A DNA stretch of 64,000 bases from Candidatus Peregrinibacteria bacterium (lineage in GTDB: Bacteria; Patescibacteriota; Gracilibacteria; UBA1369; LOWO2-01-FULL-3). A model generated the notes under the pieces. That model was not told the origin of the DNA and did no database searches. It saw nothing but the letters and a program-made list of their open reading frames with translations. The position numbers and the translations under genes were made by a program. Shown here piece by piece: positions 1 to 20,499 of this stretch. How positions within the stretch are numbered: position 1 is the stretch's first letter; each line of letters starts with the position of its first letter. Location: contig JABILX010000001.1 in NCBI GenBank assembly GCA_018654255.1, forward strand, positions 209,695-273,694. Direction: 5' to 3'.

Positions 1-3000
1 GAGAATCCCCAGCACCCAACTCGTAATCCCCAAGCAAAAGGGAAACCTTTGGAGTCTTCTCCATAGTAGTTTCAAAAGAAATAGTCCGAACACCATTAGC
101 AGGAACAGAAATTCCAGAGATAACTTTATTACGATGAAGAGGATTTGTATATTCCCAGTACAAATCATCACTACAACCCACATCCAAACACTTGAGAGTA
201 GTTTCATAAATCCTCTGATTACTAGGGGTGAGATCAGAAAGCTTCAAACCAGTAATGGTCGAGCCAGTATTATTTTTGAGAACAATGCTATGTTCAATAT
301 TGTCATATAGTTCGATAGGAGCTCCATTCAAATCAATAGCCGTCTTGGTAGATCCTTCCAATGCAGGGATATGATTAGGAAGTAAGAACTGCATGGTAGA
401 AGAAACAGTTTCAGGCAGATTACCCAAATAATCATCGAATTCAAAAATTTGATACTCATCTATATAAGCCTCCTCAGGCGATGGAGAAGGAAGTGGTCCA
501 GAATATCCAGGACGCACATAAAGTTTATCACCAACAATAAAGAAATCGTATTTCTCCTCCTTCACAGTCATCTCTACAAAATAAGGCCTAGACTCCGAAG
601 GCAATCCATTATAAGAAACCAATATATCATCGATCATCTCTATTCCATCCACATGAATACTAAAATTCCCGAGCTTATCACCAGCAGGATTGATCTCTCC
701 ATCCTCATTCCAGAAAACATAAACATTCCCACTACTATCAGACAGCGCAATGTCTGGAAGGTCATCATTATTCAAATCTCTCGCATACATCTCATAAATC
801 TTCGCAGCGGTATTCAGAGTTAAATTCTTTCTATCAAAACTTCCTTCATTATTTTCATAAATATAAAGACACTGCTCACCTTGGATACAGCTGTTATCTG
901 TTCCAATTATCAAGTCGTCAAATCCATCATTATTGATATCAATCTTCGACAAACTCAAAATTCCATTAACAACATTCAGCACAATTCCCTTATCTAAATA
1001 TTTCTTATTACTATTCTCATTTTGAAGCAATCGAAGCTTGCCATCACCATAAACAATCAACAAATCCTCCCGATCATCGCCATTATAATCAAAAGAAATC
1101 AATTCAGTTATTGTTCTATCTCCAGAATAAACAAGCGAACCAACATCCTTTGTATAGTAAGAAAGATCACTGACCAAATCTTCTTCAGCATTATCTATAG
1201 AAATAGTTGGATCTCCTAATAACACTCCAGTTTCGCCAGCATAAGCCAAATTCGATTCACCAACAGTATTTCCTGCGGCAAAAAGCAGCATGTTCTTATT
1301 CCCAGAGCCACTTCCAAACCCGACCCCAGCAGTCTCCCCAGCGCTCTCCAGTGACACATAAGGCAGCCCAGGAGCCATTGAAGAGTCCATCTCTTGATTT
1401 GTATCAACAACATAAACTCCCTTGTTAAAAGAAGTAGAATATCTAGAAAAACCAGAAACAAGTTGATAATTACTATCATCATCAAATAATTTCAGATAGA
1501 TTCCAGGCCAGAAATTCTCGAACTCATTTTCAGACGAAAGAACCTGAACATTGGCATCAAAATTTTGCTTGAACATGACCTGAGCCAAAGGCTGTCCCTT
1601 ATAATAAAGAAGTAAAGTGAAATAAGTTTGATCAACATCTTCTTCGGTAGGGAGCTTGTAAGTAAGAAGGCTGCTTGATACAGAAACACGTCCTTCCTTA
1701 GAAATAGAACCAACAGTCAGATCATTGTCAATAATCAAGATCTCACTCTCATCAGCATTGAACTTCAAAATAGGCAGGGTAGGGATGTCAGTTATCCTCT
1801 GTACTAAAATCCCTTCTTCATAGTCTGCAAAAGAAGCAGATTCAGGCTCAGCCAAAGCATCACCGCTACCTCCACCAAGTGCATCTGCGATACTCAACTC
1901 CTCTTCTCCAGTCGGTCCAACTATCTCGAGATCCAAACCATCCTTTGGCACAACAAACATCTCAGCCAACTGTCCGCCAGTCACACCATCAAAGAAATTA
2001 ACTTTTTGATAAGGGAACGAATCATTAGCCAAAACCAAATCCGCCATCACATTCTCACTATCAACCAAATCAACTTGTCCATAACCATCTACAAACACAG
2101 ATCTCAAATAATCGCCATCATCAGCGGTAGTTGAGAGTACCGCTTGTGACTGTCCCTTGAACAGCAACGAAGCGGCCAAGTCATCTTTCCCAAAATCACT
2201 AAACGCAGAACCAAGTAAATTAATATAAAGTGCTTTTGGATTAATCTCATCAAAATCAAATTTTTCAGAAATTCGTTTCTTGATCTGTAGACCAAGTTTA
2301 GCTTGCTCCACATCAGTCGCGGCAGCAGCCAAATTCGCAAATCCAGAAAGCCCACTTGAACGAACAGAAATCTCAGCCTTTCCTTCAACAGTCTGCACAA
2401 AAGTCTCACCAATAAACTCAACCATAGAAGCGGTTCCAGCACTTGCGCCAAAAGCAACAACCTTTTGATCCAAATACGCGAGATTGTCATATTCATCCAA
2501 CAGTTTTGCCTGCAAGATAGTCCCAGCAATAGAGTCAGTCAAAATCACATCATCCTCAGACACAAGCTCGATTTTCACTGCATCTCCAGGGAGAGTAGTC
2601 AAATCAACAGAACTACTAGCAAAGCCAGGAGCGCTAACTTCAATGTTAACGTCACCAGCCTTGGTAGTAGAAGAAATATACGCTCTCATCTCACCGTCTG
2701 TCATGTAAATAGGTGGAAGCTCACTAAACTCAGCAATACTGCCATCCATAATATTGAAAGAAACAGGGCCATTGTAACCACCGAGAACATCTCCACTTAC
2801 AGATGTTAGTGCCGCGCTCACATGAGCAGCTCCCTCACCATCAGCATCGATCTGAGACTGACTTAATAAAAGTTGCATCTTTGCCTCGCCAAGCACTTCA
2901 AATTTCTTGGAAGCTCCAATGGTTCCAAAAAAATCAATCTGTTCATTATTTTTCACAGCGACAGCAAGATCGTTGCTTAACTTATAATCAAGCAAGACAG

Positions 3001-6000
3001 CATACAAATTAGCATTTCCTATCTCGTCTTCAGACAAAACCTCAATACTCGCTCTTCCCTCCACAAAATTCATCTGCACCCCAGGAATCAAACCATCTAA
3101 ATCCTTCTCGTAATCAAGGGCAGCCTTTCCAAATATAAACACAGCGACCTTGGTGAAAGCATTGTAAGCTTGATTGTCATATTTATCATAAAGCTCAAAA
3201 GACACATTAGCTTTTGACTGATTGTTCGCGACTAGAACATCAGTATCGGTTATTATTCTGATCTTTGCAGGCTCCGCAGGAACTACTGAAAAATCTTTTA
3301 TTCCATCAGCATATACAGCTCCATCACTGACCCTCGCTACAATCTTCACTTCACCAGCCTTGGTAGCAGGCTTGATGTACACAGAAGCAAGTCCATTCTC
3401 TGCATCGACAACATAACCATCAACAAACTCAACGCTATCCTTCCCTTCAACAATATCAAAAGTAACTTCATTATTAGCAAACGGATCAAGCACACCCCCT
3501 CCATTCAATTGAGCGATAACCTCAATCTCTTCCTCATCACCAGCAACCATCACAGAAGACGACCCAAGTAAATCAATGCTTTTTGCAGAAGTTGATAATG
3601 TGATCTCCTCACTAGATAAATCTTCGATATCAGTATTATTTTTCTTAACTTCATCAGAAAACAAAGCCTCAACAAAAACCTTCACTTCACCAGGATTTGG
3701 CGTAGTGAGTAATTTGTAATACGCCTTCCCCTCAGGATCCAATGTTTTTTTGAAATCAGTCTTCTCGATCTCAAGGACAGGATTCAGATTGTCCTGAGAA
3801 ATATTTATTTGTAAAGAAGGATACTCTCCATTCTCGAAAGGCTTTTCATTCTGATCAAATCCTTCAACGGTCAACAATATACTAGAAACACCATCACTAT
3901 AAGCAGATACTCTATCAGTAGAAATCTCGATTTTGGTCAGCACACTACAATCCTGAACTGCATCAAAACATTTATCTCCACAGATTGGAACCATCCCAAT
4001 ATGTCCTGGTATATCGGCCATGAAATCCCAAATTTCAGTAAGCTTTGGGTACAGCTCATCGGTAATCCAGAGCACAAAAGGAATCCATTTCCAATTATCC
4101 TTGTCCTTTTCATTTCCATGCTCATCAACATCAGGGAACATTTCCTCAAAAGTATCACCCTCAGGAATATCTTCGTCATACTCATCTTCCTCAACAGCTC
4201 TATTGAAAGCCATATCGATGAAGTCGCCATCATCACTAGTTCCACCATCAAAAACCAAATAAGCAGCCTCATATCCCTCATAAGAATCGTTCACATATGC
4301 TTCCAAATCTTGATTGAGATAATATTTCAAAACATACTCATGCTTATCATCAACTGACAAGCTGTTCCAATAAAGAGCATCCATGATTACATCTTTGTCC
4401 GCGCTAAGCATCTTCAAAGAATGCTCCTCACTATCAAATATAGAAACTTCCTCATCAGAATGGGTAGAAACATCGAAGATCTCATTCTTCACATATTCCT
4501 TCACACTTCCCCCCGCTTCCTCTGCCAACTTCGATGACCCAGGAATACTCAAAAGGGTCTGCGCAAACAGATCTACATAAACATTCCACTGAGCAACTCC
4601 ATTGACGTCCACATCCTCCAAGTCCTCACCAAATTGTGTGACCGAAGCCGCATCAAACAAATTAGGATAATCCAATTTTTGGACATCCCCGTACTTATCA
4701 ACAAAAGCAACATACCTAGGATTATCGATCGGCAAACTCTGAGCAAACCCAGCGTTGAGCTGTTCTCCAATCGTGAAATTAGTCGGTTCGTTATGAATTA
4801 TCAAACTAGGAATAGTGAAAGCAATATCAGGCTTAACTTTCAAAACCAAATCAGTAGCAGGCTTAAAAGTAGCCGAAGACAAAGGTAGGGGATACCAATA
4901 TTCGCCAGCTTCAGGAGGATCAAGCTCCGATCCAAAAATCAAAGGATTCGTGTAAGAGTCAAACCTAGGCCCAAGCAAAAACCTACTAACCATATAAATA
5001 TTATCTGGATCAAGCCCATACTCAGCCTTCGCCTCCACCATATCGAAGACTAACTGATTTTCAGTATTGACCGAAAAATCCACGATACCATTTCCGTCAT
5101 CATCCTTTCCATTCCAAAGACCAAACCTCTCGGCAAACGTAGCAACGGTGATATCTACCCCTTCAGCCTCACCAAGATCAAACATCGTCGTTGAATCAAC
5201 GACAGTAACATTCCTGCCGCTACCACCATAAGGTATATTGTCATTTTTCTTACCTTCCTTTTTGGCGAAAAGATTCATCATCTGAATAACCTCGGTATAG
5301 TAGTCATAGTTGTGCCATCTGCTACCACTATTGCCATTAGAGTCACCAGTATTAGGAAATTGAGCAGGCAAGAAATTGAAACACGCATCCACATAGATAT
5401 CATCCACATCCTCGAATTCTCGTCCTGAAGGAAGTTGGAACATTTCATTATGAGTATCGAAATCTTCATATTCCCCAGGGTTATCCTCATCCTCAACCAT
5501 CAGCTTCTGCCCAGCAGGGAACTGATGTTCATAAGCGATCTCACCTGTAATCTGATCAGGGTCAGCAATTGCAAGTGAAGTATATTCACTATCGTAGTAC
5601 TGAGATCCACCCTCATATTCGACAACAAGCCCACGAGCGCCACGGCTAAAAGGCTCATAACTTCCAGCTACGTCGAGCACAGGATAGGTTGCAAGCATTG
5701 AGAAGCATCGATCGTCATGAAGCATCGCAGAGCTGTAGAAACAGCCTTTTAAGTCATTGCTCCTATAAGCCGCCGAACTGCTTTGCAAAGAATAGATCGG
5801 AGACAAATGGTCTAGCTTGATCTCATCAGTCGTGAGAATCTGCCCACTATCGCCAGAATCAGTATCAAAATATCTAACCTTAAAATAACTATATTTATCC
5901 CAATAATTTTTATCTTCATCCTTTCCACCACTTTTTTTGTTTCGAACATTCAAGTTGAAACTCTGCACAGCATCGTCTAACTCTTTTTGATTTCGAACCA

Positions 6001-8356
6001 AAGTTTGCCCACCACCTCCATGCTCCGAAGAAAGATAATAATACTTATCATCAATCTTGAAAAAGCCAGGAGCAAAAGGACTCAAGACAAAAGGATCTTC
6101 ACCAGGATCTTGGGGAAAACTCATCGCAGAAGCAACTCCAGCCTCAGGTGGTTCCTCACCAAGAATTTCTTTGTAAATAGAACATGGCTTACATTCGATC
6201 AAAGGTACCTCCGTCTCAAAAGAGAAATATTTTTTGTCAGGCCAAGGCCAAGGTTGATTGCTTCCTTTCAAAACCATCGGCACTTCATCAATAGGAACCG
6301 TAACAGTAATGTCATGATCCTTAACTAATTTTCTATTTATAACAGGCGCTTTGTTTTCGTCCTTCAAAGCATCAGGAATAATAGCAGGTCCACTGAATTT
6401 TTTTATACCCGTACTGATCCAGTAAGTCATGTCTTCAATCGAAAGAATGATGTCTCCCTCCTCCAGATCCGCTATAGAATCATCTACAGATTCATCAAGA
6501 GGACTGTCATTATAAAACGCTGGATATCCATGCTCAGAATTCCCCTCGATCAACATACCAAAATCAAAACCTTCCCCCATATTCATCCTGTTCTGAGCTT
6601 CAGCAGGCGACAAACCAACTCCATTCACAGCCAAGTGATAAGTAGTAGCTCCAGTCGAAGAATTATCCGACCTGATAGAACGAGTCAAAACAGAATACTC
6701 ATCCCCACCTTCATACATCGTTCCGAGATACGGAAAGCATTGTTTCGGACTATTCAACGCATCCTCTGAAACGCCATTGATATACATCTTGTCATCAGAA
6801 GCGGTGTAGTAGTTGTTGAAATAGATAGGACTAAGCTCCAGAGGCTTTGTTCCTCCAAGGAGATCAAAAGGATTCACAGTTCCCCAATCAAAAACCTTGA
6901 AAGGTGGATACTTCTTCCCACACCCAGCACCAAAGAAACCATTACATCTCGTCGACCTATTTTTATAACCCAACTCCAACGACAAACCCCCAACAGTCCC
7001 AGAAACCGCAGAGTTCGCAACTATCGGCAAGTCCACAGAAATCACACTCGCAAAATGATTTACTTTTTCTTCAATGGCATCATTCGCCGTCCGCAAGTAC
7101 TGCTTGGTAAACTCATCCTTCATCGCAATCAACGCAGGCACAGAATCGATCCCTCCAGTCTCAGCCGCATAACGGAAAGTATAACGCGCAAAGTCATTAG
7201 ATTGCGCAATCGCTTTGTAAACAACCTGAGTGAAAGGAACATGATATTTCTCAATAATTTGTTTCGAATAAATATCCGGCAACTGATCAAAGTAAGAATC
7301 TCCACTACCTCCTCCTTGCATCGCATCCATCAATCTCTGCCCAGGATCAGCAGCAACACCAGTCACCCCAGCAGCAGCTAGTCCCGCAGCCTCCTGATCA
7401 AGAATCTCATCAGATGGACCCCCCAACGTATCCAAAATCCCTCCCAAGTCATCAACCGCAGTCCCAGCGACATCTTCCGCCCAATGCTTATTAAATCTCA
7501 AATAAGCCAAATCATCCATGTTGGTCAAATAATTCTGATAAAGCTTGTAAGAGGTCTCATTAACCCTCTTATCCTCATCTATCAGATCTCCATAAAAGAT
7601 CTTCCGATTAAACTCAGCGTACTCATCCTCCCCAGTATGGTAGAGATGATTCTTATCAAAAAACTTCGCCAAGTCATTCAATTCCTCCAGACTCACGATG
7701 CTATCCCCATCAAAGCTCGGCGCTCTCAATATTCCGTGCCAAACCTCCATCTTTGGTTCCTTTACCAGATCATTCTTGTCAAAGGACTCAGTCAACGGAT
7801 TGAAAATATAATATTTATCATCAAAATCAGTCAGCGGAAACATCGAAACAAATCGATTCCCATTCTTATTCACAACAGGAAGCGGGATCTGCCCAACAAA
7901 AACAGCACCAACCAACCTAGAAGACACATTCTCGACACCATTCTTGTACAAGTTCTCCAAAGCAGTGATGACATCAAGCAAACTGTCTGTCTCCGGGTCA
8001 TAAGTCAAAGTCTTCACAATCGTTCTAGGCGAATTAACCTGCACATCCTCCGCATACCTCATTATTCTCTCAGAAATAGTATCCGTATCAATCAACTCAG
8101 AAGGATAATCCGCAATCAACCCTTCAAGCGCAATATTCTCTTCCAAAAGATCTTTCTCAACCACTAACACCATGATATCAAACACCTCCTCATCATCAGA
8201 CGCAGCAAAAGCTGTCTCCCCACCAATATCAAATCCCTCCCAAGCACTCGCCACATTCAAAAAAGCCAAATTCTGAGTGAACAAAAGGCAAAAGGACAAA
8301 GCCCAAATAATAGGTTTCTTAAGCTGTTTTCCTTGAATGAGGGAGAAAAACTTCAA
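1..8356 (-). CDS. giant secreted surface protein, >2,780 aa, C-terminus left of window; Ig-like (Big/invasin-type) repeats plus FG-GAP/VCBS-like repeats
   Basis: The reverse frame with codon starts = 1 mod 3 is open from 8356 to base 1. I spot-checked plus-strand triplets at positions = 2 mod 3 in 1-120, 1441-1500, 4381-4440, 5881-5940 and 6301-6360 and found no TTA/CTA/TCA. Every minus ORF the track lists here is in a different frame. In-frame TAA at 8362-8360, then TTG at 8356. The N-terminus MKFFSLIQGKQLKKPIIWALSFCLLFTQNLAFLNVASA is signal-peptide-like. Ig-like modules map to about 2290-3940 (GEVKVFVEA, AGEVKIVARV, AGDVNIEVSAPGF). FG-GAP-like repeats map to about 700-1110 (FDYNGDDREDLLIV, DINNDGFDDLIIG, RDLNNDDLPDIALSD). 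Confidence 0.8.
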   Translation of the reverse strand, partial: MKFFSLIQGKQLKKPIIWALSFCLLFTQNLAFLNVASAWEGFDIGGETAFAASDDEEVFDIMVLVVEKDLLEENIALEGLIADYPSELIDTDTISERIMRYAEDVQVNSPRTIVKTLTYDPETDSLLDVITALENLYKNGVENVSSRLVGAVFVGQIPLPVVNKNGNRFVSMFPLTDFDDKYYIFNPLTESFDKNDLVKEPKMEVWHGILRAPSFDGDSIVSLEELNDLAKFFDKNHLYHTGEDEYAEFNRKIFYGDLIDEDKRVNETSYKLYQNYLTNMDDLAYLRFNKHWAEDVAGTAVDDLGGILDTLGGPSDEILDQEAAGLAAAGVTGVAADPGQRLMDAMQGGGSGDSYFDQLPDIYSKQIIEKYHVPFTQVVYKAIAQSNDFARYTFRYAAETGGIDSVPALIAMKDEFTKQYLRTANDAIEEKVNHFASVISVDLPIVANSAVSGTVGGLSLELGYKNRSTRCNGFFGAGCGKKYPPFKVFDWGTVNPFDLLGGTKPLELSPIYFNNYYTASDDKMYINGVSEDALNSPKQCFPYLGTMYEGGDEYSVLTRSIRSDNSSTGATTYHLAVNGVGLSPAEAQNRMNMGEGFDFGMLIEGNSEHGYPAFYNDSPLDESVDDSIADLEEGDIILSIEDMTYWISTGIKKFSGPAIIPDALKDENKAPVINRKLVKDHDITVTVPIDEVPMVLKGSNQPWPWPDKKYFSFETEVPLIECKPCSIYKEILGEEPPEAGVASAMSFPQDPGEDPFVLSPFAPGFFKIDDKYYYLSSEHGGGGQTLVRNQKELDDAVQSFNLNVRNKKSGGKDEDKNYWDKYSYFKVRYFDTDSGDSGQILTTDEIKLDHLSPIYSLQSSSAAYRSNDLKGCFYSSAMLHDDRCFSMLATYPVLDVAGSYEPFSRGARGLVVEYEGGSQYYDSEYTSLAIADPDQITGEIAYEHQFPAGQKLMVEDEDNPGEYEDFDTHNEMFQLPSGREFEDVDDIYVDACFNFLPAQFPNTGDSNGNSGSRWHNYDYYTEVIQMMNLFAKKEGKKNDNIPYGGSGRNVTVVDSTTMFDLGEAEGVDITVATFAERFGLWNGKDDDGNGIVDFSVNTENQLVFDMVEAKAEYGLDPDNIYMVSRFLLGPRFDSYTNPLIFGSELDPPEAGEYWYPLPLSSATFKPATDLVLKVKPDIAFTIPSLIIHNEPTNFTIGEQLNAGFAQSLPIDNPRYVAFVDKYGDVQKLDYPNLFDAASVTQFGEDLEDVDVNGVAQWNVYVDLFAQTLLSIPGSSKLAEEAGGSVKEYVKNEIFDVSTHSDEEVSIFDSEEHSLKMLSADKDVIMDALYWNSLSVDDKHEYVLKYYLNQDLEAYVNDSYEGYEAAYLVFDGGTSDDGDFIDMAFNRAVEEDEYDEDIPEGDTFEEMFPDVDEHGNEKDKDNWKWIPFVLWITDELYPKLTEIWDFMADIPGHIGMVPICGDKCFDAVQDCSVLTKIEISTDRVSAYSDGVSSILLTVEGFDQNEKPFENGEYPSLQINISQDNLNPVLEIEKTDFKKTLDPEGKAYYKLLTTPNPGEVKVFVEALFSDEVKKNNTDIEDLSSEEITLSTSAKSIDLLGSSSVMVAGDEEEIEVIAQLNGGGVLDPFANNEVTFDIVEGKDSVEFVDGYVVDAENGLASVYIKPATKAGEVKIVARVSDGAVYADGIKDFSVVPAEPAKIRIITDTDVLVANNQSKANVSFELYDKYDNQAYNAFTKVAVFIFGKAALDYEKDLDGLIPGVQMNFVEGRASIEVLSEDEIGNANLYAVLLDYKLSNDLAVAVKNNEQIDFFGTIGASKKFEVLGEAKMQLLLSQSQIDADGEGAAHVSAALTSVSGDVLGGYNGPVSFNIMDGSIAEFSELPPIYMTDGEMRAYISSTTKAGDVNIEVSAPGFASSSVDLTTLPGDAVKIELVSEDDVILTDSIAGTILQAKLLDEYDNLAYLDQKVVAFGASAGTASMVEFIGETFVQTVEGKAEISVRSSGLSGFANLAAAATDVEQAKLGLQIKKRISEKFDFDEINPKALYINLLGSAFSDFGKDDLAASLLFKGQSQAVLSTTADDGDYLRSVFVDGYGQVDLVDSENVMADLVLANDSFPYQKVNFFDGVTGGQLAEMFVVPKDGLDLEIVGPTGEEELSIADALGGGSGDALAEPESASFADYEEGILVQRITDIPTLPILKFNADESEILIIDNDLTVGSISKEGRVSVSSSLLTYKLPTEEDVDQTYFTLLLYYKGQPLAQVMFKQNFDANVQVLSSENEFENFWPGIYLKLFDDDSNYQLVSGFSRYSTSFNKGVYVVDTNQEMDSSMAPGLPYVSLESAGETAGVGFGSGSGNKNMLLFAAGNTVGESNLAYAGETGVLLGDPTISIDNAEEDLVSDLSYYTKDVGSLVYSGDRTITELISFDYNGDDREDLLIVYGDGKLRLLQNENSNKKYLDKGIVLNVVNGILSLSKIDINNDGFDDLIIGTDNSCIQGEQCLYIYENNEGSFDRKNLTLNTAAKIYEMYARDLNNDDLPDIALSDSSGNVYVFWNEDGEINPAGDKLGNFSIHVDGIEMIDDILVSYNGLPSESRPYFVEMTVKEEKYDFFIVGDKLYVRPGYSGPLPSPSPEEAYIDEYQIFEFDDYLGNLPETVSSTMQFLLPNHIPALEGSTKTAIDLNGAPIELYDNIEHSIVLKNNTGSTITGLKLSDLTPSNQRIYETTLKCLDVGCSDDLYWEYTNPLHRNKVISGISVPANGVRTISFETTMEKTPKVSLLLGDYELGAGDS

Positions 8357-8428
8357 AGCTTATACATTAATATATCTATACAACTTCAAAATATACCACC
8401 CTTACCCACCCAAAAACAACAAATTAAA

Positions 8429-8441
8429 CCTGTTAAACAGG
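8429..8441. promoter_or_regulatory. 13-nt palindrome CCTGTTAAACAGG between the pilin gene and the giant gene
   Basis: Perfect 6-1-6 inverted repeat. It shares the AACCTGTTA core with repeats at 14820-14911, and the 11-mer GTTAAACAGGC recurs at 49553-49563. Confidence 0.35.
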
Positions 8442-8469
8442 CATTTGTGTTGACAGATGTGAAAGGAGT

Positions 8470-9000
8470 CTACTTGTAGCGGACACCGTAGCAGCAATTG
8501 TCTCCAGTCCCAGCACAGTTGTCTTGTATAAAGTGAGAATCAGGGAATTCATCAGGAAATTTAGGATCATTACTCTGAGTCTGGCCACATCTAACATTAG
8601 CCTCGTCAGGTCCTTCCATCTGAACAAAAACACCGTACTCATAGGTATAAGCAGTTGGATAAACTTTTATATAGTAGCCGCCTTTTTCAGCATCAACACA
8701 ACCCTTCGTAGGCAAACCAGAAGGATCGGTAGGGAAGCCAACGGTAGGAAAATATTGCTTATAAACATCAGATTGATCACTCAAACAACCGGTGACAAGC
8801 TTGTCACCGCCGGTATAAATATTGACACCGTCATTAGTGGCAGCCTGAAAGGTTTCAGCTATTGTTTGAACATCGGCTTTTCTTGCAGTATTTCTAGCAT
8901 CAAGAGAAGACCCAAACATTTTTGGTAAAAGCGTAACAGCCAAAATGCCGATTATCATAATAACAACCATTAACTCTATGAGTGTAAAACCTTTTTTCAT
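8470..9000 (-). CDS. type IV pilin-like protein (prepilin N-terminus)
   Basis: MKKG/FTLIELMVVIMIIGILA is a class III signal with Gly-1, Phe+1 and Glu+5. 176 aa, six Cys, C-terminal DNCCYGV motif. Confidence 0.85.
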   Translation of the reverse strand: MKKGFTLIELMVVIMIIGILAVTLLPKMFGSSLDARNTARKADVQTIAETFQAATNDGVNIYTGGDKLVTGCLSDQSDVYKQYFPTVGFPTDPSGLPTKGCVDAEKGGYYIKVYPTAYTYEYGVFVQMEGPDEANVRCGQTQSNDPKFPDEFPDSHFIQDNCAGTGDNCCYGVRYK

Positions 9001-9097: not shown

Positions 9098-9628
9098 TTA
9101 TTTTGAAGTAACTCCATAACAACAGTTGTCAAGAGCTTCACAAGCAGAAACATCGTCTTCGTTTATTTTTGGATCTTCAAACACAACATTGGCACATAAC
9201 ATATTTGCATTAGCCACCTTCTCAACTTTAGAAAAGATCCCATAGAGTTTTGTGGAATCAGCAGTTTTATAAATAGCAAAAGCATACTCACCAGCGCCAC
9301 AGCCACCAACAGTTTGGAGAGGGTCTGGGTCTCCAGGGATGGTTCCGCCACCAAAATATTCCTTGAAAGCCGTCAAAGCAGCAGGCAATGGTGATGAGAG
9401 ACACAAATTCTGCTGTGCAGCAAGTTTTGATAAACTTTTATTATCTAATCTTCCGGCCTCCATAGCTTGTACAGAATTACTCATATCCGCCTGCCTTGTA
9501 GCATCCCTCGCTTTCTCAGGCGCACCCATAATACTTGGCAAGAATACAACTGCCAAGATTCCAATGATCGTTATTACGATCAGGAGTTCTATTAGTGTGA
9601 ACCCCAGTTTACTGAACCGATTTCTCAT
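9098..9628 (-). CDS. type IV pilin-like protein (prepilin N-terminus)
   Basis: MRNRFSKLG/FTLIELLIVITIIGILA. 176 aa, C-terminal DNCCYGV motif shared with 8470..9000. Confidence 0.85.
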   Translation of the reverse strand: MRNRFSKLGFTLIELLIVITIIGILAVVFLPSIMGAPEKARDATRQADMSNSVQAMEAGRLDNKSLSKLAAQQNLCLSSPLPAALTAFKEYFGGGTIPGDPDPLQTVGGCGAGEYAFAIYKTADSTKLYGIFSKVEKVANANMLCANVVFEDPKINEDDVSACEALDNCCYGVTSK

Positions 9629-9717: not shown

Positions 9718-11016
9718 TTACATAGATATGTCCGACAACTGCATGATAGGCAACATCACAGCTGCCACGATCACACCCACAGAAACACCGATAAAAACCA
9801 AAATCATAGGCTCAAGGATTTTAGCGAGCCCATTGACAGTATCACTAACATTGTCCTCATAATAAGCCGCGACCTTTATCATAATCTCATCCAACTGTGC
9901 AGTCTTTTCTCCAACTTCAACCATATTAACCAACATAGGAGGGAACAACTTGCTATCCGACAAATTCTCCGCAAGAGGGATACCTTGCTTGATATCCTCA
10001 GAAGCCAGCATTATTCTCCTTTTATAAACTTCATTACCAATTGAATTAGCAGTGATCTCCATAGTCTTCACGACAGGAACACCACTACTCATCAAATTAG
10101 AAAGCGATCTCGCAAACCTAGCAAGGTAAGTCATCTGAAACAATTTTCCAAAAACCGGAGCCCCCAATTTAATTTTATCAATTATATATTTACCCTGCGG
10201 CCTTTTACTTCCAATCACCATGAACATAGCCAATATAATCAGCCCGATAAATAAATAAACTCCATACTCTATCAAAAAATCACTTATCCCAACGACGATC
10301 CTAGTAACGAGCGGTAGTTCAGCCGCTTGCCTTTCAAACAATTGCGACAACTTCGGAATGATGAAAACCATCATCACAATAAGCACAACAATCAAAAGCA
10401 CAATAATCGCAATCGGATACATCAACGCACTTTTTATTTTGTGTTTAATATCCTGGCGTCTCGCGATATCGACCGCCAAATTATCCAAAGTTTGATTCAA
10501 TTGTCCGGCAGCTTCACCAGACTCAATCATCCCAATTTCCATGTCAGAAAACTCTTTGTCATGAAAAGTCATCGCCTCAGAAAGACTCTTACCTTCCTCG
10601 ACTTTTTCCTGCAGATCTTTAATAATAATAAAAAGATGTGACTTCGCACTAACTTGTCCCATCAAAGATTTCAAAGATTTAATAACAGACACTCCTGCAT
10701 TAATCATAACAGACAAAAGGTGAAAAAAGTTAGCTTTCTCATCATCATCAATACCAGAATGTGAAAGCATATAACCATTCAATTTTTTGAACCATCTTGC
10801 CAAGAAAAACCCCTGATTATCAAACTCATACGTATTCTCTCCTCCTAGAAATTTCTTTCCTTTTTCACTAATAACCACACTGTCATCATCGATATTCAAA
10901 ACAATAGGGGGCTTGCCAGTTTTCCTAGACTTTGCCGGTCCATTTGCTTGTTTATTTTTTCCTAATTTGAAGATTTCTTTACCAGCGAATTCGAAACCTT
11001 TAGCTTGTTTCGGCAT
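9718..11016 (-). CDS. pilC: type IV pilus assembly platform protein PilC (GspF/T2SSF family)
   Basis: 432 aa polytopic membrane protein with two T2SSF-like halves. It overlaps the pilB stop by 17 nt. Confidence 0.85.
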   Translation of the reverse strand: MPKQAKGFEFAGKEIFKLGKNKQANGPAKSRKTGKPPIVLNIDDDSVVISEKGKKFLGGENTYEFDNQGFFLARWFKKLNGYMLSHSGIDDDEKANFFHLLSVMINAGVSVIKSLKSLMGQVSAKSHLFIIIKDLQEKVEEGKSLSEAMTFHDKEFSDMEIGMIESGEAAGQLNQTLDNLAVDIARRQDIKHKIKSALMYPIAIIVLLIVVLIVMMVFIIPKLSQLFERQAAELPLVTRIVVGISDFLIEYGVYLFIGLIILAMFMVIGSKRPQGKYIIDKIKLGAPVFGKLFQMTYLARFARSLSNLMSSGVPVVKTMEITANSIGNEVYKRRIMLASEDIKQGIPLAENLSDSKLFPPMLVNMVEVGEKTAQLDEIMIKVAAYYEDNVSDTVNGLAKILEPMILVFIGVSVGVIVAAVMLPIMQLSDISM

Positions 11017-12601
11017 TAGTATCTAAATTATTTTGATCTTTGTTTTGATTTTCAGTTGTCTCAGTCTCGACATCGGCAGGTACGACCTCGGCAGGCGCAG
11101 ACTCAGGTGCAGGCGCACCATCTGCGACAGGAGCTTCCTTAGTTTTTTTCGAAGCCTTAGCTTCTTCAAACTCACCTTTTTTCGAAACACGATAAACTTC
11201 CTCAAGACTAGTCTTGCCCTGAAGAGCTTTCAAAATACCATCTTGCTCAAGAGTCAACATCCCGTTCTTAAGAGCAATATCTTGGATATCCAAAGTGGAC
11301 ATTTGAGTAAAAATACCTTTTCTAATTTTATTATCAACTCTCAAAACTTCATAAAGACCAACTCGCCCATGATATCCAGTCTTATTACACTCTGCACACC
11401 CAGCTCCTTTCTGAAACTTCATTCCTTCGACCAACGCAGGATCGATCTCTCCTTCCAAATTAGCCTTACTCAAAATAAGTTTGATTCCATCGATAGTGTC
11501 AGCATCAACGGTGTCCTCAACTTTACAGTGCTCACAAATTTTTCTAACCAACCTCTGTGCGATCACAAGTTCCAAAGTTGATGATAGTAAGTACGGCGCG
11601 ATTCCCATATTCAAAATACGAGTAACCGTCTCAACCGCACTATTTGTATGCAAAGTAGAGAGTACCAAGTGACCTGTCAAAGCAGCTTCAATAGCAGTAT
11701 TACCAGTCTCTTTGTCACGGATTTCTCCGACCATTATGATGTCGGGATCCTGCCTCAAAGCTGACCTCATCCCAGAAGCAAAAGTATATTTGATGCTAGG
11801 ATGAACCTGACTTTGATTAAGACCATCTATTTGGATTTCGACCGGATCTTCGATAGTAAGGATATTCACTCCATCTGCATTCAGCCTACTCAAAGCCGAA
11901 TAAAGTGTAGTTGTTTTACCAGATCCAGTAGGCCCTGTATTTAAGATAATTCCATTTGGCGATTTCAATGCTTCTTCAATGTTTTTCAAAGCTCTTCCAC
12001 CAATTCCAAGCTCAGGAAGATCAGGAATATCTCTCGACTTATCTTGGATACGCATAACGATTTTTTCACCGTTCACAGTCGGCATAGTCGAGACACGGAG
12101 ATCCATCTCTCTTCCTTCTTTTGTAGTAACTTCAGTACGACCATCTTGCGGAACTCGTTGCTCATCGATCTTTAGATTCGACATGATCTTGATCCTAGAA
12201 ACAACGGCCGGATGCAAGTTGGTTGGATACTCAACGATGTGCTGAAGAACACCATCGATCCTGAAACGAAGTCGAACTTTATTCTCCTCAGGCTCCATGT
12301 GGATATCACTAGATCTCATGTCCAAAGCAAGACTTATCGACATCATCACAAGCTGCGGAATATTCGCAGAAATAATAGTTTCTTGTAGTTGTTTTAGTTT
12401 TGGATTTGCAAGTGCAGCCTTTGGCGCAACTTTTGCGGCAGTCGGCGCTGGAGCGGCAGGTTTTGCAACTGCTGGAGCAGCAGGTTTTGCGACAGCTGGA
12501 GCCGGCGCCGGAACAACTGCCGGAGCTTGTGCTGCCGGAGCAGCCGCAGGCTTTGCAGCTTTTTCATCTTGCGTCTGATTTTGAGTTCCTTCGTCTGCCA
12601 T
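11000..12601 (-). CDS. pilB: type IV pilus assembly ATPase PilB (GspE family) with Ala/Pro-rich N-terminal extension
   Basis: Walker A GPTGSGKTTT. Tetracysteine motif CEHC...CAEC. About 70 aa of AAPA/AKPA low complexity at the N-terminus. Confidence 0.9.
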   Translation of the reverse strand: MADEGTQNQTQDEKAAKPAAAPAAQAPAVVPAPAPAVAKPAAPAVAKPAAPAPTAAKVAPKAALANPKLKQLQETIISANIPQLVMMSISLALDMRSSDIHMEPEENKVRLRFRIDGVLQHIVEYPTNLHPAVVSRIKIMSNLKIDEQRVPQDGRTEVTTKEGREMDLRVSTMPTVNGEKIVMRIQDKSRDIPDLPELGIGGRALKNIEEALKSPNGIILNTGPTGSGKTTTLYSALSRLNADGVNILTIEDPVEIQIDGLNQSQVHPSIKYTFASGMRSALRQDPDIIMVGEIRDKETGNTAIEAALTGHLVLSTLHTNSAVETVTRILNMGIAPYLLSSTLELVIAQRLVRKICEHCKVEDTVDADTIDGIKLILSKANLEGEIDPALVEGMKFQKGAGCAECNKTGYHGRVGLYEVLRVDNKIRKGIFTQMSTLDIQDIALKNGMLTLEQDGILKALQGKTSLEEVYRVSKKGEFEEAKASKKTKEAPVADGAPAPESAPAEVVPADVETETTENQNKDQNNLDTNAETS

Positions 12602-12605: not shown

Positions 12606-13229
12606 TTAAATATTTTGGTAATAAGCATTAATCTTCACAGAAAAATTAATTGTATTGCTAGTCGTTGATTCGTCTTCACTAAAACTCATATGAATAGACT
12701 CAATGTCCATCAAACGAACCTCATCCACGAGCGATCCAGATTTTTCAATATACTGCAAAAACTTCGTGAAATTTTCCTCCGAACTCGAAATAGTCATCCT
12801 GAGTGGCAAATATTTATATGCTTCATCTTCAGTCATTTGAATATCTTGATACTCAATATTCGAAATCAAAAACGGACTGTTTTTACTATCAGTAGCATTT
12901 TCAAATTGATCAAAAGATCGAGTAAGCTCGGTATAATTATTCTGAGCAGGGAAGACTTCTTTCAAACTAGAGTCGATCTCATCAGTTAATTCATCAAACA
13001 CAACTTTTTGATTTTGATAGTTGCTGCTTTCATTTATTTTTTTCGATTTCAAAATCTCAACATTAGCCTCATTCGCAGCAACAGCCTCTCTATACAAACT
13101 GTAATCAACCCACTTGAAATATGAGTAAGCAACAATCAACCCACCAAAAACCACGCACAAAATTGCATAGAAGGTAATGCTCTTCTTCTGTCTATTTACA
13201 ACGTCTTTATAACTTTCTTTTTCTGGCAT
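12606..13229 (-). CDS. PilO-like bitopic membrane protein
   Basis: 207 aa with one N-terminal TM helix, a coiled segment, then a small alpha/beta domain. It lies directly upstream of pilB. Assigned by architecture and position only. Confidence 0.45.
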   Translation of the reverse strand: MPEKESYKDVVNRQKKSITFYAILCVVFGGLIVAYSYFKWVDYSLYREAVAANEANVEILKSKKINESSNYQNQKVVFDELTDEIDSSLKEVFPAQNNYTELTRSFDQFENATDSKNSPFLISNIEYQDIQMTEDEAYKYLPLRMTISSSEENFTKFLQYIEKSGSLVDEVRLMDIESIHMSFSEDESTTSNTINFSVKINAYYQNI

Positions 13230-14771: not shown

Positions 14772-14819
14772 TTTTTGTTTTAAATTTATTCGAATTTATC
14801 TAGATATTATATCAAATTT

Positions 14820-14928
14820 TAACCTGTTAGTAAAGGGTGGAATAGGAAAAAACTACAAGAATAGAAAATTAATCCGGATTAATTTTCTAACCTGTTAGCT
14901 CTAACCTGTTAATTTTAATCCGGATTAA
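14820..14928. promoter_or_regulatory. operator-like repeat cluster upstream of the pilus cluster
   Basis: TAACCTGTTA at 14820-14829, 14888-14897 and 14902-14911. Perfect 14-nt palindrome TTAATCCGGATTAA at 14869-14882 and 14915-14928. Confidence 0.45.
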
Positions 14929-14961: not shown

Positions 14962-15004
14962 GCACAAAAAAGCCGATTCCAAGTGTACACACCTGGAACC
15001 GGCT
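14962..15004 (-). terminator. rho-independent terminator after rplL
   Basis: The minus strand reads AGCCGGTTCCA-loop-TGGAATCGGCT followed by TTTTTTGTGCTTTTTG. Confidence 0.65.
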
Positions 15005-15018
15005 CTACGAAATAAAAT

Positions 15019-16345: not shown

Positions 16346-17272
16346 ATGAATCTCACCAAACAACTAAAATCCTTTCTGAAATCAGCCAAAACCCCACTCG
16401 TAGTCATCCTCGGACCGACTGCCAGCGGGAAAACGGCTATTTCTCTGAAAATCGCCAAAGAAATCGACGGTGAAATCATCTCAACCGACTCTCGCCAGAT
16501 ATACCGCGGCCTTGAAATTGGATCAGACGCCCTACCAGAAGAAGATCAGGAAGAAGTACCACACCACATGATAGGAATTGTCGACCCAGATCGAGAATAC
16601 AGCCTCGCCGAATACAAGGACGACGCCGAAAAAATCATCAAAGAAATCCGCGAACGCGACCACGTCCCAATGTTAGTAGGCGGAACAGGTCTATATATAT
16701 CAGCTCTTATAGAAAATTATGACGTCCCTCGCGTTCCACCAGACAAAAAACTCAGAGAAAAACTGTACAAAGAAGCAGAAAAAAAAGGCCCAGAAGCCCT
16801 CCACAAACGCCTAGCCGAACTCGATCCTGAATCAGCAGACAAAATACACCCAAACAACCTGAGATATGTGGTAAGAGCACTCGAAATCAACCTGAAAACC
16901 GGCAAACCAAAACAAGACACAAAAGTCGGGCCAGCAGCAATAAAAAAGGACGTCTTCATGATCGGCATCGAACGACCACGCGAAGAAATCTACGAACGCA
17001 TCAACTCACGTGTCGACAAACAAGAATACAGAGGCCTCATCGACGAAGTCACGGCCCTCCTGGACAAAGGCTACGACGAAAACCTTCCCGCAATGTCCTC
17101 CCTCGGCGTCAAAGAAATCATTCCTTTCATTCGCAAAGAACAAACGCTCGACGAATGCAAAGAAACCCTCAAACAAAACACTCGCAACTACGCAAAAAGG
17201 CAGGGAACTTGGTTCAGACGCTATCCGCAGATTCACTGGATTAAAGCTGAAGATCTTCCCACAATACTTTAG
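16346..17272 (+). CDS. miaA: tRNA dimethylallyltransferase
   Basis: P-loop GPTASGKT, followed by STDSRQIYRGLEIGSD. Confidence 0.9.
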   Translation: MNLTKQLKSFLKSAKTPLVVILGPTASGKTAISLKIAKEIDGEIISTDSRQIYRGLEIGSDALPEEDQEEVPHHMIGIVDPDREYSLAEYKDDAEKIIKEIRERDHVPMLVGGTGLYISALIENYDVPRVPPDKKLREKLYKEAEKKGPEALHKRLAELDPESADKIHPNNLRYVVRALEINLKTGKPKQDTKVGPAAIKKDVFMIGIERPREEIYERINSRVDKQEYRGLIDEVTALLDKGYDENLPAMSSLGVKEIIPFIRKEQTLDECKETLKQNTRNYAKRQGTWFRRYPQIHWIKAEDLPTIL

Positions 17273-17345
17273 CCAACATCCGTAAAGAAGAAATACAAAG
17301 ATCACACTTCCGAGGTCTCAGGATTTTTGATATAAAATAACTTGT

Positions 17346-17735
17346 ATGACTTCATTCAAAACACTACAACGTCTCGCAAAAAAACTCCGCTCCCCAACAG
17401 GTTGCCCTTGGGATCGTTCACGGACGATAGAGGATATGGCGGAAAGTATGGAAGAGGAAGCAGAAGAGATCCAGGAAGCATTCAAGAAAAAAGATTGGAA
17501 AAATCTGAGAGAAGAACTCGGTGACGTGCTATTCAATATCGTACTCACATCCCAAATCGCAGAAGAAGAAGGAAAATTCACAATGAAAGATGTCCTCAAA
17601 GACATCGACGAAAAAATTCGCAGCAGACACACTTGGGTTTTTGGAAAAGATAAAGCAAACACACCAGAGGAAGCACTAGAAATGTGGAATCGCAACAAAA
17701 AAGCGCAAAAAGAAGAAAGCCAGGCGGAAGGCTAA
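17346..17735 (+). CDS. MazG-like nucleotide pyrophosphohydrolase
   Basis: CPWDRSRT ... EEAEEIQEA ... ELGDVLFNIV, the MazG EExxE/ExxD pattern. Confidence 0.75.
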   Translation: MTSFKTLQRLAKKLRSPTGCPWDRSRTIEDMAESMEEEAEEIQEAFKKKDWKNLREELGDVLFNIVLTSQIAEEEGKFTMKDVLKDIDEKIRSRHTWVFGKDKANTPEEALEMWNRNKKAQKEESQAEG

Positions 17736-17770
17736 AACAACCGCCCACCAACGTCTTAAAAAGTACAAAA

Positions 17771-19474
17771 ATGTCAGTCCTAGGAAAGAAATGGATTATC
17801 AAATCCAGAAGCGCTAACGCAACAATTTTCGATAAACTTCTGGAAAACAGATCTCTTACATCTGAAGAAATCTCAGATGAAGTGGCATTTCACGATCCTT
17901 TTCTCATGAAGGATATGCAGAAATCCGTCGATCGCATCATGAAAGCGATCGCGAACGAAGAACGCATAATCATTTTTGGAGACTATGACGTCGATGGCCT
18001 GACATCAACAGCGATTCTTTATCACGCATTAAAAAAACTCAACGCAAAACATTCAGCAAGACTTCCAAACAGAGAAAAAGATGGGTATGGACTATCAAAA
18101 CAATTTATAGACGAATTCAACCAGCTCAAAGTCAAACTAGTGATAACGGTGGACACAGGAATTTCATGCAAAAAAGAAATCGATTACGCGAACAAAAAAG
18201 GAATAGATATTATAGTCACCGACCATCACCAAGTCCCAGAAACTCCACCAAAAGCATACGCAATCAATCACCCAAAACAAAAAGACTGCAGCTATCCATA
18301 CGAAGAATTAACAGGGGCAGGAGTCGCATTCAAGCTCGCACACGCACTTCTCCTTCACAATCTTGGTGAAGACGGAGTAAATGAACATTTACCACCACTA
18401 GTAGAGCTCGCAGCACTTGGAACAATAGCCGACTTAGGAGAATTAAAAGATGAAAATCGCATGATTGTAAAAGAGGGGCTGAAGAATCTCTTCAAAACCT
18501 CATCACCAGGATTGAAAGTTTTAAAATCATTGGTAGGAGTAAAAGAAGGCGAAGTCACGACGACGACAGTAGGATTCCAACTCGCGCCAAGAATCAACGC
18601 AGCGGGAAGAATCGGCGATCCATATATCGCATTGAAGCTCCTAATTGGCGAAGATGAGCAACAACTTTTTAGCTACGGAAAAGAACTAGAAGAACTCAAC
18701 AAAAAAAGACAAGAAATGACAACTACAAGCTTCTTCGAAGCAATTAAGAAATTCGACAATTACGAAAAAATGGGCCAATTGCCATACATATTGATAGATT
18801 CGCATCCAGACTGGCATGTTGGGATCATCGGCCTCACCGCATCGAGGTTAGCGGACCGATTCGGCAGACCAGCCATCATCTTCCAAGACTTGGACGACAC
18901 GCTCGTGGCTTCTGCTCGCAGTATCGAAGCATTTAATATTATTGAAGCAATCGCAGCACATAAAGATCTACTTGTAACTTTCGGAGGACACAAAGAAGCT
19001 GCCGGACTCACCATCAAGAAGAAAAACTTTAAAAAATTCAAAGCACAAATAGAATCATACGCAAAAAAACTCCTCAAAAACCAAGATTTAAGATCCTCAA
19101 TTGAAATCGACTGCGAAATACAGTCAGATGATATCTCGGAGAAACTTGTGGACGAAATCAACAAACTCAAGCCATTTGGAATATCTAATAAAAGACCACT
19201 TTTTATAATAAAAGGGGCCAAGCCAGCATTCCTCGAAACAGTTGGCCGAAACAAAGATCACCTGAAATTTGAAGCAGAAATCGAAGGCAAGTCCATACCT
19301 GTTATTGGGTTCAGATTAGGGGATCATATGGGAAGCGCACGCAAACACAGGTCTCTCGATTTAGCCTGTCATGTAGATATAAACGAATGGAACGGAAAGA
19401 AGAAAATCCAGCTCGAATTAGTGGATTTCAGAGAAGGGAAAGCACCCATGTCTCCTACCTTTGACAGGGGTTGA
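17771..19474 (+). CDS. recJ: single-stranded-DNA-specific exonuclease RecJ
   Basis: DHH motifs GDYDVDG, DTGIS and VTDHH. I chose ATG 17771 over the track start 17684, which overlaps mazG. Confidence 0.85.
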   Translation: MSVLGKKWIIKSRSANATIFDKLLENRSLTSEEISDEVAFHDPFLMKDMQKSVDRIMKAIANEERIIIFGDYDVDGLTSTAILYHALKKLNAKHSARLPNREKDGYGLSKQFIDEFNQLKVKLVITVDTGISCKKEIDYANKKGIDIIVTDHHQVPETPPKAYAINHPKQKDCSYPYEELTGAGVAFKLAHALLLHNLGEDGVNEHLPPLVELAALGTIADLGELKDENRMIVKEGLKNLFKTSSPGLKVLKSLVGVKEGEVTTTTVGFQLAPRINAAGRIGDPYIALKLLIGEDEQQLFSYGKELEELNKKRQEMTTTSFFEAIKKFDNYEKMGQLPYILIDSHPDWHVGIIGLTASRLADRFGRPAIIFQDLDDTLVASARSIEAFNIIEAIAAHKDLLVTFGGHKEAAGLTIKKKNFKKFKAQIESYAKKLLKNQDLRSSIEIDCEIQSDDISEKLVDEINKLKPFGISNKRPLFIIKGAKPAFLETVGRNKDHLKFEAEIEGKSIPVIGFRLGDHMGSARKHRSLDLACHVDINEWNGKKKIQLELVDFREGKAPMSPTFDRG

Positions 19475-20445: not shown

Positions 20446-20499
20446 CCCCTTCAAACTTCCCCCTTGATACCTACCTCAAATCCTCACACACCGCTACAA

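Follow-up and report, generated by a model that had tools for sequence, protein, structure and literature searches.

Giant surface proteins of host-dependent bacteria are already known. Vampirococcus lugosii encodes giant membrane or surface proteins of 1,392–4,163 amino acids (aa), and giant surface proteins have been proposed as attachment factors in related predators (PMC8080830). Large extracellular proteins have been described in 'Ca. Peribacter riflensis' (PMC4736985), Peregrinibacteria are enriched in uncharacterised proteins of >5,000 aa (PMC11573180), and in a Saccharibacterium type IV pili are needed for host association (PMC9894109). How Patescibacteria other than Saccharibacteria find, hold or exploit their partners is largely unknown, and the Peregrinibacteria have no cultured member. 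The present analysis concerns a 64,000-nucleotide stretch of a Candidatus Peregrinibacteria bacterium contig (JABILX010000001.1), called the window throughout, and more specifically the giant gene that occupies its first 8.3 kb on the minus strand, directly downstream of a type IV pilus-like gene cluster. What sets it apart is that a conserved architecture and a conserved linkage to pilus genes are documented for such a gene.

The giant protein shares with the V. lugosii and Peribacter proteins the broad lineage, the very large size and the (here predicted) export. Those proteins carry integrin/FG-GAP, DUF11-type and immunoglobulin (Ig)-like modules, and type IV pili co-occur with them. For those proteins, host recognition or attachment has been proposed but not shown (PMC8080830, PMC4736985). 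Predatory Omnitrophota, which are small-celled bacteria of a different phylum, have giant, mostly unannotated exported proteins as well (bioRxiv 10.1101/2023.11.21.568195); here the likeness is by description only, and the word 'Peregrinibacteria' is absent from that preprint. The present family differs from the V. lugosii and Peribacter proteins by its own colinear architecture of ~5,100 aa, by an N-terminus without matches and by a fixed position after the pilin genes across 158 genomes. A literature search, which was not exhaustive, returned no description of the family, of the ~5,100-aa architecture, of the 1,450-aa unmatched N-terminus or of the fixed post-pilin position.

Three better-known kinds of protein also invite comparison. 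PilY1 and PilC1-2 are type IV pilus tip adhesins, that is, large non-pilins encoded beside pilin genes, with a Sec signal and a calcium-dependent beta-propeller, that take part with the pilus in attachment. The giant protein resembles them in being a large non-pilin beside pilin genes, with a Sec signal and propeller-type repeats. However, its size is about fivefold theirs, the FG-GAP repeats are placed in mid-protein rather than at the C-terminus, and its S-layer homology (SLH)-like repeats suggest wall rather than pilus-tip attachment; in addition, neither Pfam nor NCBIfam gives a match to the PilY1 or Neisseria_PilC propeller domain in the window protein or in the full orthologue. With the SLH-anchored S-layer proteins of monoderm bacteria it has in common three SLH-like repeats as a potential non-covalent wall anchor, but these are degenerate, lie ~200–400 aa from the C-terminus, are followed by TSP3 repeats and are preceded by >4,700 mostly unmatched residues. 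Finally, SiiE, the LapA/Bap-type proteins and Ebh are giant adhesins in which tandem repeats number from tens to hundreds, and type I secretion is used by many of them. Size, acidic character, calcium-type motifs and bacterial Ig-like domains are similar, whereas the giant protein, in contrast to the RTX/Bap/LapA type, has a Sec signal, a single detectable internal duplication and no tandem arrays.

The giant gene and its family

The original prediction described a reverse frame of more than 2,780 codons, open from a TTG at 8356 to base 1, missing from the supplied track of open reading frames (ORFs) and continuing beyond the window. All of this is borne out. Exact translation of the minus-strand frame 8356..1 gives 2,785 codons with no in-frame stop, and the other five frames over the same 8.3 kb contain 46–381 stops each. 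With ~6% stop codons expected at 40% GC, the probability of an open run of this length arising by chance is ~1e-79 (an arithmetic estimate). The gene is missing from the ORF track because ORFs running off the ends of the source go unlisted there. It is important to point out that tracks which drop ORFs at contig ends miss exactly the largest genes. The parts of the gene that are discussed below are the following:

8357..8469, minus strand: conserved leader of 113 nt, ~90% identical to positions 1185-1294 of the orthologue locus L006
1..8356, minus strand: gene of the giant, predicted secreted protein, codons 1-2785 of 5,138, continuing past base 1
8354..8356, minus strand: TTG start codon, also TTG in the L006 orthologue
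8243..8356, minus strand: Sec-type signal peptide, aa 1-38, with Lys-rich n-region, hydrophobic core and ASA/W end
7607..8194, minus strand: conserved alpha/beta domain, aa 55-250, defined by invariant columns and an AlphaFold2 model
6407..7606, minus strand: remaining part of the conserved N-terminal block, aa 251-650, mostly helical, the conserved positions including Cys and charged residues
5057..6406, minus strand: less conserved stretch, aa 651-1100, listed with an indel-rich island at ~aa 635-735
3917..5056, minus strand: second conserved block, aa 1101-1480, with the near-invariant HNEPT...SLPIDNPRYVAF...YPNLF and GYEAAYLV
2207..3916, minus strand: ~4-5 Ig-like modules, aa 1481-2050, the Pfam-significant one at nt 2597-2875 (aa 1828-1920)
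1157..2206, minus strand: conserved block, aa 2051-2400, including NKxMLLFxAGNSVGES
746..1087, minus strand: three FG-GAP (integrin-alpha-type) repeats, aa 2424-2537, by Pfam
2..745, minus strand: region without a family, aa 2538-2785, running out of the window, colinear with the family member P0001

The remainder of the gene can be read from other assemblies. All 2,785 codons recur without a difference on a 78 kb contig (ENA ERZ4200974, L001), where the frame stays open as far as codon 3,295. The exact sequence of the pilin adjoining the giant gene is present on 18 public contigs, and on four of these, which are independent assemblies including ones from ENA and JGI, the giant gene is called with 5,138 aa. 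The NCBI call in GCA_018656405.1 has 5,114 aa because the start is placed 24 codons later. The window thus holds the first, N-terminal 54% of the 5,138-aa protein.

As to the start, the TAA that had been claimed to precede the TTG in frame is found at 8360-8362, two codons before TTG 8356-8354. We consider this TTG to be the best start, because the orthologue also has TTG, residues 1-24 are nearly unchanged between the window and the orthologue, the family consensus retains the Lys-rich n-region and the hydrophobic core, and the NCBI start cuts the signal segment. The genes of the source genome are generally without a Shine-Dalgarno sequence, so that its absence at TTG 8356 is no argument against this start.

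A complete orthologue of 5,140 aa was found on the metagenome contig FLOH01000101.1 (the locus L006). It is colinear with the giant protein at ~85% identity, and the identity per 100-residue bin is 73–94%, the sole exception being aa 2901-3000 with 52%. The codon comparison between the two gives a synonymous divergence (dS) of 0.71 and a non-synonymous divergence (dN) of 0.092, that is, a dN/dS of 0.13, and the ratio is 0.08–0.23 in each 300-codon bin. No DNA tandem repeats were found in the giant gene, and a mis-assembly is therefore unlikely. The giant frame is one intact, real gene under purifying selection.

Relatives were collected by an exhaustive HMMER search with aa 1-1200; a word-indexed search had given just 2–5 relatives per query. 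At E≤1e-3 there are 366 cluster representatives, 137 of them at E≤1e-30, and most are 3,500–6,066 aa long. Along the whole orthologue, 94 giants align colinearly. An alignment of 58 sequences shows more than 10 distinct conserved blocks and three indel-rich islands, at ~aa 635-735, 2835-3035 and 4135-4235, and the family is colinear and essentially non-repetitive. By sequence comparison, ~70% of the giant protein appears to resemble nothing known, with >3,500 aa lacking a recognisable domain. The names given to family members in the source databases are 'hypothetical protein', 'FG-GAP-like repeat-containing protein', 'uncharacterized repeat protein (TIGR01451 family)' and 'S-layer homology domain-containing protein'; where an organism is given, it is Candidatus Peregrinibacteria, Gracilibacteria or Patescibacteria.

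In a scan of one genome per species, using search patterns from a compact alignment, relatives were found in 158 species-representative genomes; the locus-level details given here and below rest on the best 80 of these loci. All 80 are labelled Peregrinibacteria, Peribacteria, Gracilibacteria, Patescibacteria or 'uncultured bacterium', bar one Nitrospirota-binned contig. In this case (L030, JAUVQE010000014.1) the giant gene has PilB, PilC and a pilin upstream in a 'Nitrospirota' metagenome-assembled genome, and mis-binning, not transfer, is the most likely origin of this label. The frame is open to the end of the fetched DNA in 75 of the 80 loci, with at least 3,000 open codons in 52, and the other five have one stop each. 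Four loci lie on complete chromosomes of 1.34–1.49 Mb, so that the giant gene makes up ~1% of such a genome.

Interrupted orthologues occur on three low-coverage metagenome contigs. At L009 2844-13419 there are two TAA and one TGA in one frame across 3,525 codons, the orthologues at L008 10001-13509 and L010 841-4586 are interrupted as well, and gene callers split them. Errors of sequencing, decay or a genuine split of the gene could each account for this. For L008 and L009, a UGA=Gly code was considered and rejected, since TAA and TAG are among the stops concerned; in these two, low coverage or decay is the more likely explanation.

Parts of the giant protein

The original prediction listed, in this order, a signal peptide, about 1,400 aa without a family, several Ig-like modules of invasin/Big type and FG-GAP repeats. 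Each of these parts was recovered, and in the same order. The N-terminus reads MKFFSLIQGKQLKKPIIWALSFCLLFTQNLAFLNVASA/WEG, and aa 1-38 contain the sole strongly hydrophobic 19-mer within the 2,785 aa. A hydrophobic N-terminal segment is present in 113 of the 120 family members with an intact N-terminus. The giant protein is not itself a pilin by the motifs searched for: it has neither the prepilin G/FTLIE motif nor an N_methyl match, which is confined to the two upstream 176-aa genes. A side observation concerns the tripeptide FTQ in the hydrophobic core of the signal peptide (window aa 26-28), which is found in 27 of 150 members, many of them closer relatives (P0004–P0043). Conserved signal-peptide sequence is rare, and FTQ might mark a specialised export or sorting route.

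For aa 39-~1480, i.e. ~1,450 aa, no Pfam, NCBIfam or PDB-sequence match was obtained, even at relaxed thresholds. The same holds for 24 family fragments scanned singly, and for a family profile searched against PDB sequences. The region is among the most conserved parts of the family. Within aa 55-250, the motifs G(D/Q)xPLPVVNKNGNRFxSxFPxTDF, WHG and FDKNH are invariant or nearly so, while aa 651-1100 are covered by just 6–39 of the 94 giant relatives, with an alignment occupancy of 0.18. In the second conserved block, the HNEPT motif corresponds to nt 4781-4795.

A fold search of the N-terminal region, which the original prediction had proposed, was carried out with Foldseek on two AlphaFold2 models, covering aa 1-660 and aa 300-1499, and gave no match at E≤1e-3. 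The first model, built from a 24-sequence alignment, is confident only for the alpha/beta core at aa 55-250, the predicted local distance difference test (pLDDT) being mostly 82–92 per block at aa 61-160 and 221-240. Foldseek of this core against the PDB gave no match at E≤1e-3; the weak top matches are to caspase-like, flavodoxin-like and metalloproteinase domains and to type II dehydroquinase, those of the caspase type being the Raptor caspase-like domain (E 9e-3), caspase-3 (3e-2) and caspase-8 (0.18). The second model, built from 32 sequences, has a mean pLDDT of 61.8 and a predicted template modelling score of 0.64, with values of 64–92 in the blocks 751-940 of the model (aa 1050-1239). 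It has no match in the PDB (best E 2.9) and none among the predicted viral structures of BFVD.

A reading of aa 55-250 as a clan CD, caspase/gingipain-like domain, prompted by VGxxPLP...WHG, was considered and was not adopted in view of the weak and mixed fold matches. WHG is near-invariant, yet no conserved Cys follows it where a His-Gly ... Ala-Cys dyad would be expected, and none of 24 family members has a C25, C13 or C14 match in Pfam.

The modules that follow are easier to place. In the Ig-like part, Invasin_D3 (PF09134) is matched with 38.6 bits (cut-off 33), which is above the gathering cut-off and indicates domain-level membership only, and the Ig-like GH2_C5 with 42.1 bits (cut-off 32). 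Big_1 (PF02369), matched like these two at aa 1828-1920, scores 30.8 bits on the window protein (cut-off 34.9) and 36.3 on a tile of the orthologue. There is an internal duplication of ~230 aa (aa 1592-1827 versus 1817-2053), from which ~4–5 Ig-like modules are counted. An N-terminus consisting of a signal peptide followed by an alpha/beta domain is unlike that of the intimin/invasin inverse autotransporters, and no beta-barrel or LysM family, which are traits of that group, is among the Pfam matches of the window protein or the orthologue.

The next block, aa 2051-2400, is covered by 81–91 of the 94 giant relatives and has no Pfam match in either the window protein or the orthologue. It is followed by the FG-GAP part, where FG-GAP_3 scores 44.5 bits (cut-off 26.9) and FG-GAP 28.9 bits (cut-off 22.1), with three stretches matched. 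This part is among the most conserved of the family (conservation 0.61–0.63), and the repeats detected number three versus the seven blades of a closed propeller. JGI labels the homologues P0005, P0033 and P0074 as 'TIGR01451 family repeat protein', but no NCBIfam match to TIGR01451/DUF11 was found in the window protein (E≤0.01) or in tiles of the orthologue (E≤0.5).

Beyond the window, the protein can be described from the L006 orthologue. A Cys-rich, acidic and highly variable island at ~aa 2835-3035 precedes the most conserved block of the whole family, ~aa 3100-3800, for which Pfam, NCBIfam and PDB sequences give no family match. Toward the C-terminus there are, in order, further unmatched sequence, the SLH-like part (~aa 4735-4950), TSP3 repeats and a short Cys-containing tail. 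The mature orthologue has a mass of 562 kDa, an isoelectric point of 4.1, 17.6% Asp+Glu and 48 Cys. Candidate transmembrane (TM) or pore segments at ~aa 3190-3660 were considered; these stretches are short, Gly/Pro/Cys-rich or amphipathic, and were not taken as TM helices.

The SLH-like part calls for some care. At aa 4735-4772 of the orthologue, the Pfam SLH model (PF00395) finds one repeat with 20.2 bits, compared to a cut-off of 20.8. The next two repeats, aa 4783-4950, align pairwise (E 3e-5) with those of another protein encoded in the window:

24378-25778, minus strand: SLH protein of 466 aa, signal peptide present, SLH model clearly matched twice (71.7 bits)

This protein is likely an S-layer or wall-associated protein, and its domain matches show that SLH anchoring is apparently in use in this organism. 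It also matches the C-terminal parts of five more distant family members (E 1e-14 to 1e-19), and one family member is named 'S-layer homology domain-containing protein' by NCBI. Since SLH repeats bind wall polymers non-covalently, a C-terminal wall anchor with the N-terminal end facing outward can be proposed. The likely anchor of the giant protein would then be its C-terminal SLH repeats, and not the pilus itself.

The pilus gene cluster and the leader

The giant gene had been described as co-directional with, and directly downstream of, two pilin genes and pilB/pilC, which the Pfam and NCBIfam matches confirm. The features upstream of it are:

8470-9000 and 9098-9628, minus strand: two prepilin genes, 176 aa each (N_methyl 30.9 and 28.8 bits)
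9718-11016, minus strand: PilC (T2SSF 187 bits)
11000-12601, minus strand: PilB (T2SSE 426 bits)
12606-13229, minus strand: single-TM protein of 207 aa
13236-14771, minus strand: single-TM protein of 511 aa, first gene of the pilus cluster (PilN 18.7 bits, below the cut-off)
14806-14834: promoter-like site, which with the next feature marks the operon start
14969-15006: strong terminator

The minus-strand order in the window is thus rplJ, rplL, terminator, 511-aa gene, 207-aa gene, PilB, PilC, two prepilins and the giant gene. Both prepilins have GspG-/ComGC-like N-termini with a G/FTLIEL motif. No PilM, PilT or PilD gene was found in the pilus cluster of the window.

The same gene order is kept in L006–L010, down to 29% identity, and it is widespread in the family. 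Of the 65 loci with at least 1.5 kb of upstream sequence, 59 have a same-strand pilin no more than 4 kb upstream, and one more has a prepilin motif. PilB and PilC are both upstream in 44 of the 48 loci with at least 7 kb, and L7/L12 in 31 of the 39 with at least 9.6 kb. Overall, the giant gene follows a pilN/O-like, pilB, pilC and pilin cluster in ~90% of species.

The original prediction placed the giant gene at the end of the pilus cluster and took its product to be a pilus-associated or cell-surface adhesin. The position after the pilins is right, and the pilus context is found to be conserved across ~60 species; the attachment, as discussed above, would more likely be to the wall. Nor is the giant gene necessarily the last in the cluster, because in L006 four genes follow at 16686-20941 (+), encoding 185, 226, 626 and 384 aa and overlapping each other and the stop of the giant gene. 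Their products each have an N-terminal signal or TM segment and no Pfam match, and they may help to assemble the giant protein or act as its partners.

The 113-nt leader between the second pilin gene and the TTG is ~90% identical to that of L006, compared to a proportion of synonymous differences (pS) of ~0.45 at synonymous sites of the gene. It contains the palindrome CCTGTTTAACAGG, of which the stem is kept and the loop altered in L006, followed by a T-run (8428-8442), and the two together scored as terminator-like. A promoter-like TTGTTG...TGGTATATT is also present, with both elements conserved around a variable spacer, and the ~45 nt between TGGTATATT and the TTG, which have no Shine-Dalgarno sequence, are conserved too. 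In L006, a strong hairpin terminator lies directly after the second pilin gene. From these elements we infer that a promoter of its own serves the giant gene and that read-through from the pilins is partial at most. Given the terminator-like hairpin and the conserved, promoter-like leader after the second pilin gene, co-transcription of the giant gene with the pilins appears doubtful. Besides a promoter, the palindrome, TTGTTG and TGGTATATT could also constitute an operator or an attenuator.

Possible functions of the giant protein

The protein is acidic, has a mass of ~560 kDa and carries an N-terminal signal segment and no other membrane-spanning segment. The interpretation that we favour, with a probability of roughly 0.6, is that it is a Sec-exported, SLH-anchored and calcium-stabilised surface protein, operating alongside the pilus-like system when other cells are contacted. 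The giant protein would be exported by Sec, and three degenerate SLH repeats toward its C-terminus would tether it to the cell by binding a wall polymer non-covalently, while the TSP3 repeats and the acidic surface would probably bind calcium. The stalk of Ig-like modules and propeller, together with the 1,450-aa N-terminal region, would project away from the cell. On contact with another cell, the protein would act jointly with the type IV pilus-like filament; in one scenario, the pilus would reach out and pull, and the giant protein would hold the target surface or act on it. The three indel-rich islands would be the likeliest sites of lineage-specific recognition, and the highly conserved blocks may have a common mechanical, docking or catalytic role.

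A number of points weigh against this interpretation. The surface location and the binding role are predicted from sequence, as is the function in cell contact, and the host-dependent lifestyle of the Peregrinibacteria is itself inferred. The SLH match of the closest orthologue is marginally below the Pfam cut-off and lies outside the window. The hairpin and the promoter-like leader stand between the giant gene and the pilins, and conserved adjacency need not mean co-transcription or physical association. Typical giant adhesins have many tandem repeats, and the giant protein is not so built. A highly conserved N-terminus is also unusual for a host-specific adhesin tip, and this conservation fits a conserved partner or an enzymatic role better. 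The non-repetitive build, the conserved N-terminus and the confinement of the variability to three islands keep alive the alternatives in which the protein is an enzyme or part of a secretion machine.

The first of these is that the N-terminal 1,450 aa constitute a new extracellular enzyme, e.g. a hydrolase of a partner's envelope, positioned by the rest of the protein as stalk and anchor; the whole would mainly be a device for attack or feeding and less an adhesin. The motifs WHG, FDKNH, KDE(Y/F)TK, HNEPT and PIDNPRY, with their invariant or near-invariant His, Asp, Glu, Arg and Cys residues, are what one would look for in such a case, in a region that is non-repetitive and strongly conserved, and the three-layer alpha/beta fold of aa 55-250 is common in hydrolases, as its weak caspase-like, metalloproteinase and dehydroquinase matches illustrate. 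Giant genes of another predatory lineage have moreover been linked to cell-wall degradation (bioRxiv 10.1101/2023.11.21.568195). However, the searches of Pfam, NCBIfam and PDB sequences give no match to an enzyme family, Foldseek gives none at E≤1e-3, and no recognisable catalytic constellation was confirmed in the models, which are only moderate (pLDDT 55–62); we regard the enzyme as a tentative proposal with perhaps one chance in a handful of being right. Equally tentative is the broader idea that the family is no passive adhesin but a conserved, non-repetitive 560 kDa extracellular device with new folds, coupled functionally to the pilus-like apparatus, and that the pilus deploys or pulls it so as to engage or breach the envelope of a partner. 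In that case aa 3100-3800 and the 1,450-aa N-terminus would hold the new folds, possibly a new enzyme or a pilus-docking module, and the lineage would possess a defining host-interaction machine occupying ~1% of the genome. In a third, less likely arrangement, the giant protein would be the cargo or outer component of a type II secretion-like piston made of PilB, PilC and the pilins, which would move or deploy it across the wall and S-layer, its N-terminus docking to the tip of the pseudopilus. The near-universal adjacency to these genes, an operon in the window without PilT or PilD, a conserved N-terminal domain as expected of a docking partner, and a Sec signal compatible with a two-step route would all agree with it. 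The monoderm-type envelope, on the other hand, has no outer-membrane secretin and hence no known gate, the giant gene apparently has its own promoter, and PilT and PilD may be encoded elsewhere in the genome.

The two remaining explanations do without any contact with other cells. A structural, S-layer-associated envelope protein serving the cell's own architecture (spacing, division, integrity), with the position next to the pilus genes and rplJ-rplL as a frozen gene order, would account for the SLH repeats, which are typical of S-layer and wall-associated proteins, and for purifying selection that is uniform along the gene. The neighbourhood including L10 and L7/L12 is kept in 31 of 39 loci, which means that synteny is conservative here in general. 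Such a role is nevertheless improbable, as modules of the Ig-like and FG-GAP kinds are typical of surface proteins that bind ligands, the three indel-rich islands suggest diversifying surfaces, and a gene that takes up ~1% of a reduced genome of ~1.4 Mb is likely to be central to the lifestyle. Hardly any weight can be given to the view that the open frame arose as an artefact, belongs to a pseudogene or spans several genes. The interrupted orthologues in L008, L009 and L010 and the single stops in five of the 80 species loci are what speaks for it, but there is no stop in the window or in the four independent assemblies, a dN/dS of 0.13 applies to the full length, the other 75 loci have an uninterrupted ORF, and no repeats are present that could cause mis-assembly.

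On the interpretation as an anchored surface protein, the gene offers a concrete handle on partner interaction in this lineage, namely a near-universal ~5,100-aa protein beside pilus genes, for which a wall anchor is predicted and whose specificity for a partner could reside in the three variable islands. The conserved blocks lend themselves to expression in pieces. In enrichment cultures, antibodies or probes could be directed at the protein, and the gene could be used as a marker of the lineage. Several large regions of the protein are, in addition, unmatched in solved or predicted viral structures (the AlphaFold DB was not searched).

Some minor observations can be added. The two prepilins share an unusual Cys-rich C-terminal end, DNCCYGV(R/T)(Y/S)K. 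The 511-aa protein has, besides its one TM helix, a long Lys/Ala/Pro-rich N-terminal tail that is probably disordered. The Rfam scan of the window gave a tRNA-Gly only. Elsewhere in the window there are four further large ORFs, which have no Pfam match at 1e-4 and no similarity to the giant family:

30856-34227, plus strand: 1,123 aa
53227-57804, plus strand: 1,525 aa
58124-59752, plus strand: 542 aa
38459-39748, minus strand: 429 aa

The 1,123-, 1,525- and 542-aa products have highly charged N-terminal regions, and the 1,123-aa product is Lys/Glu-rich.

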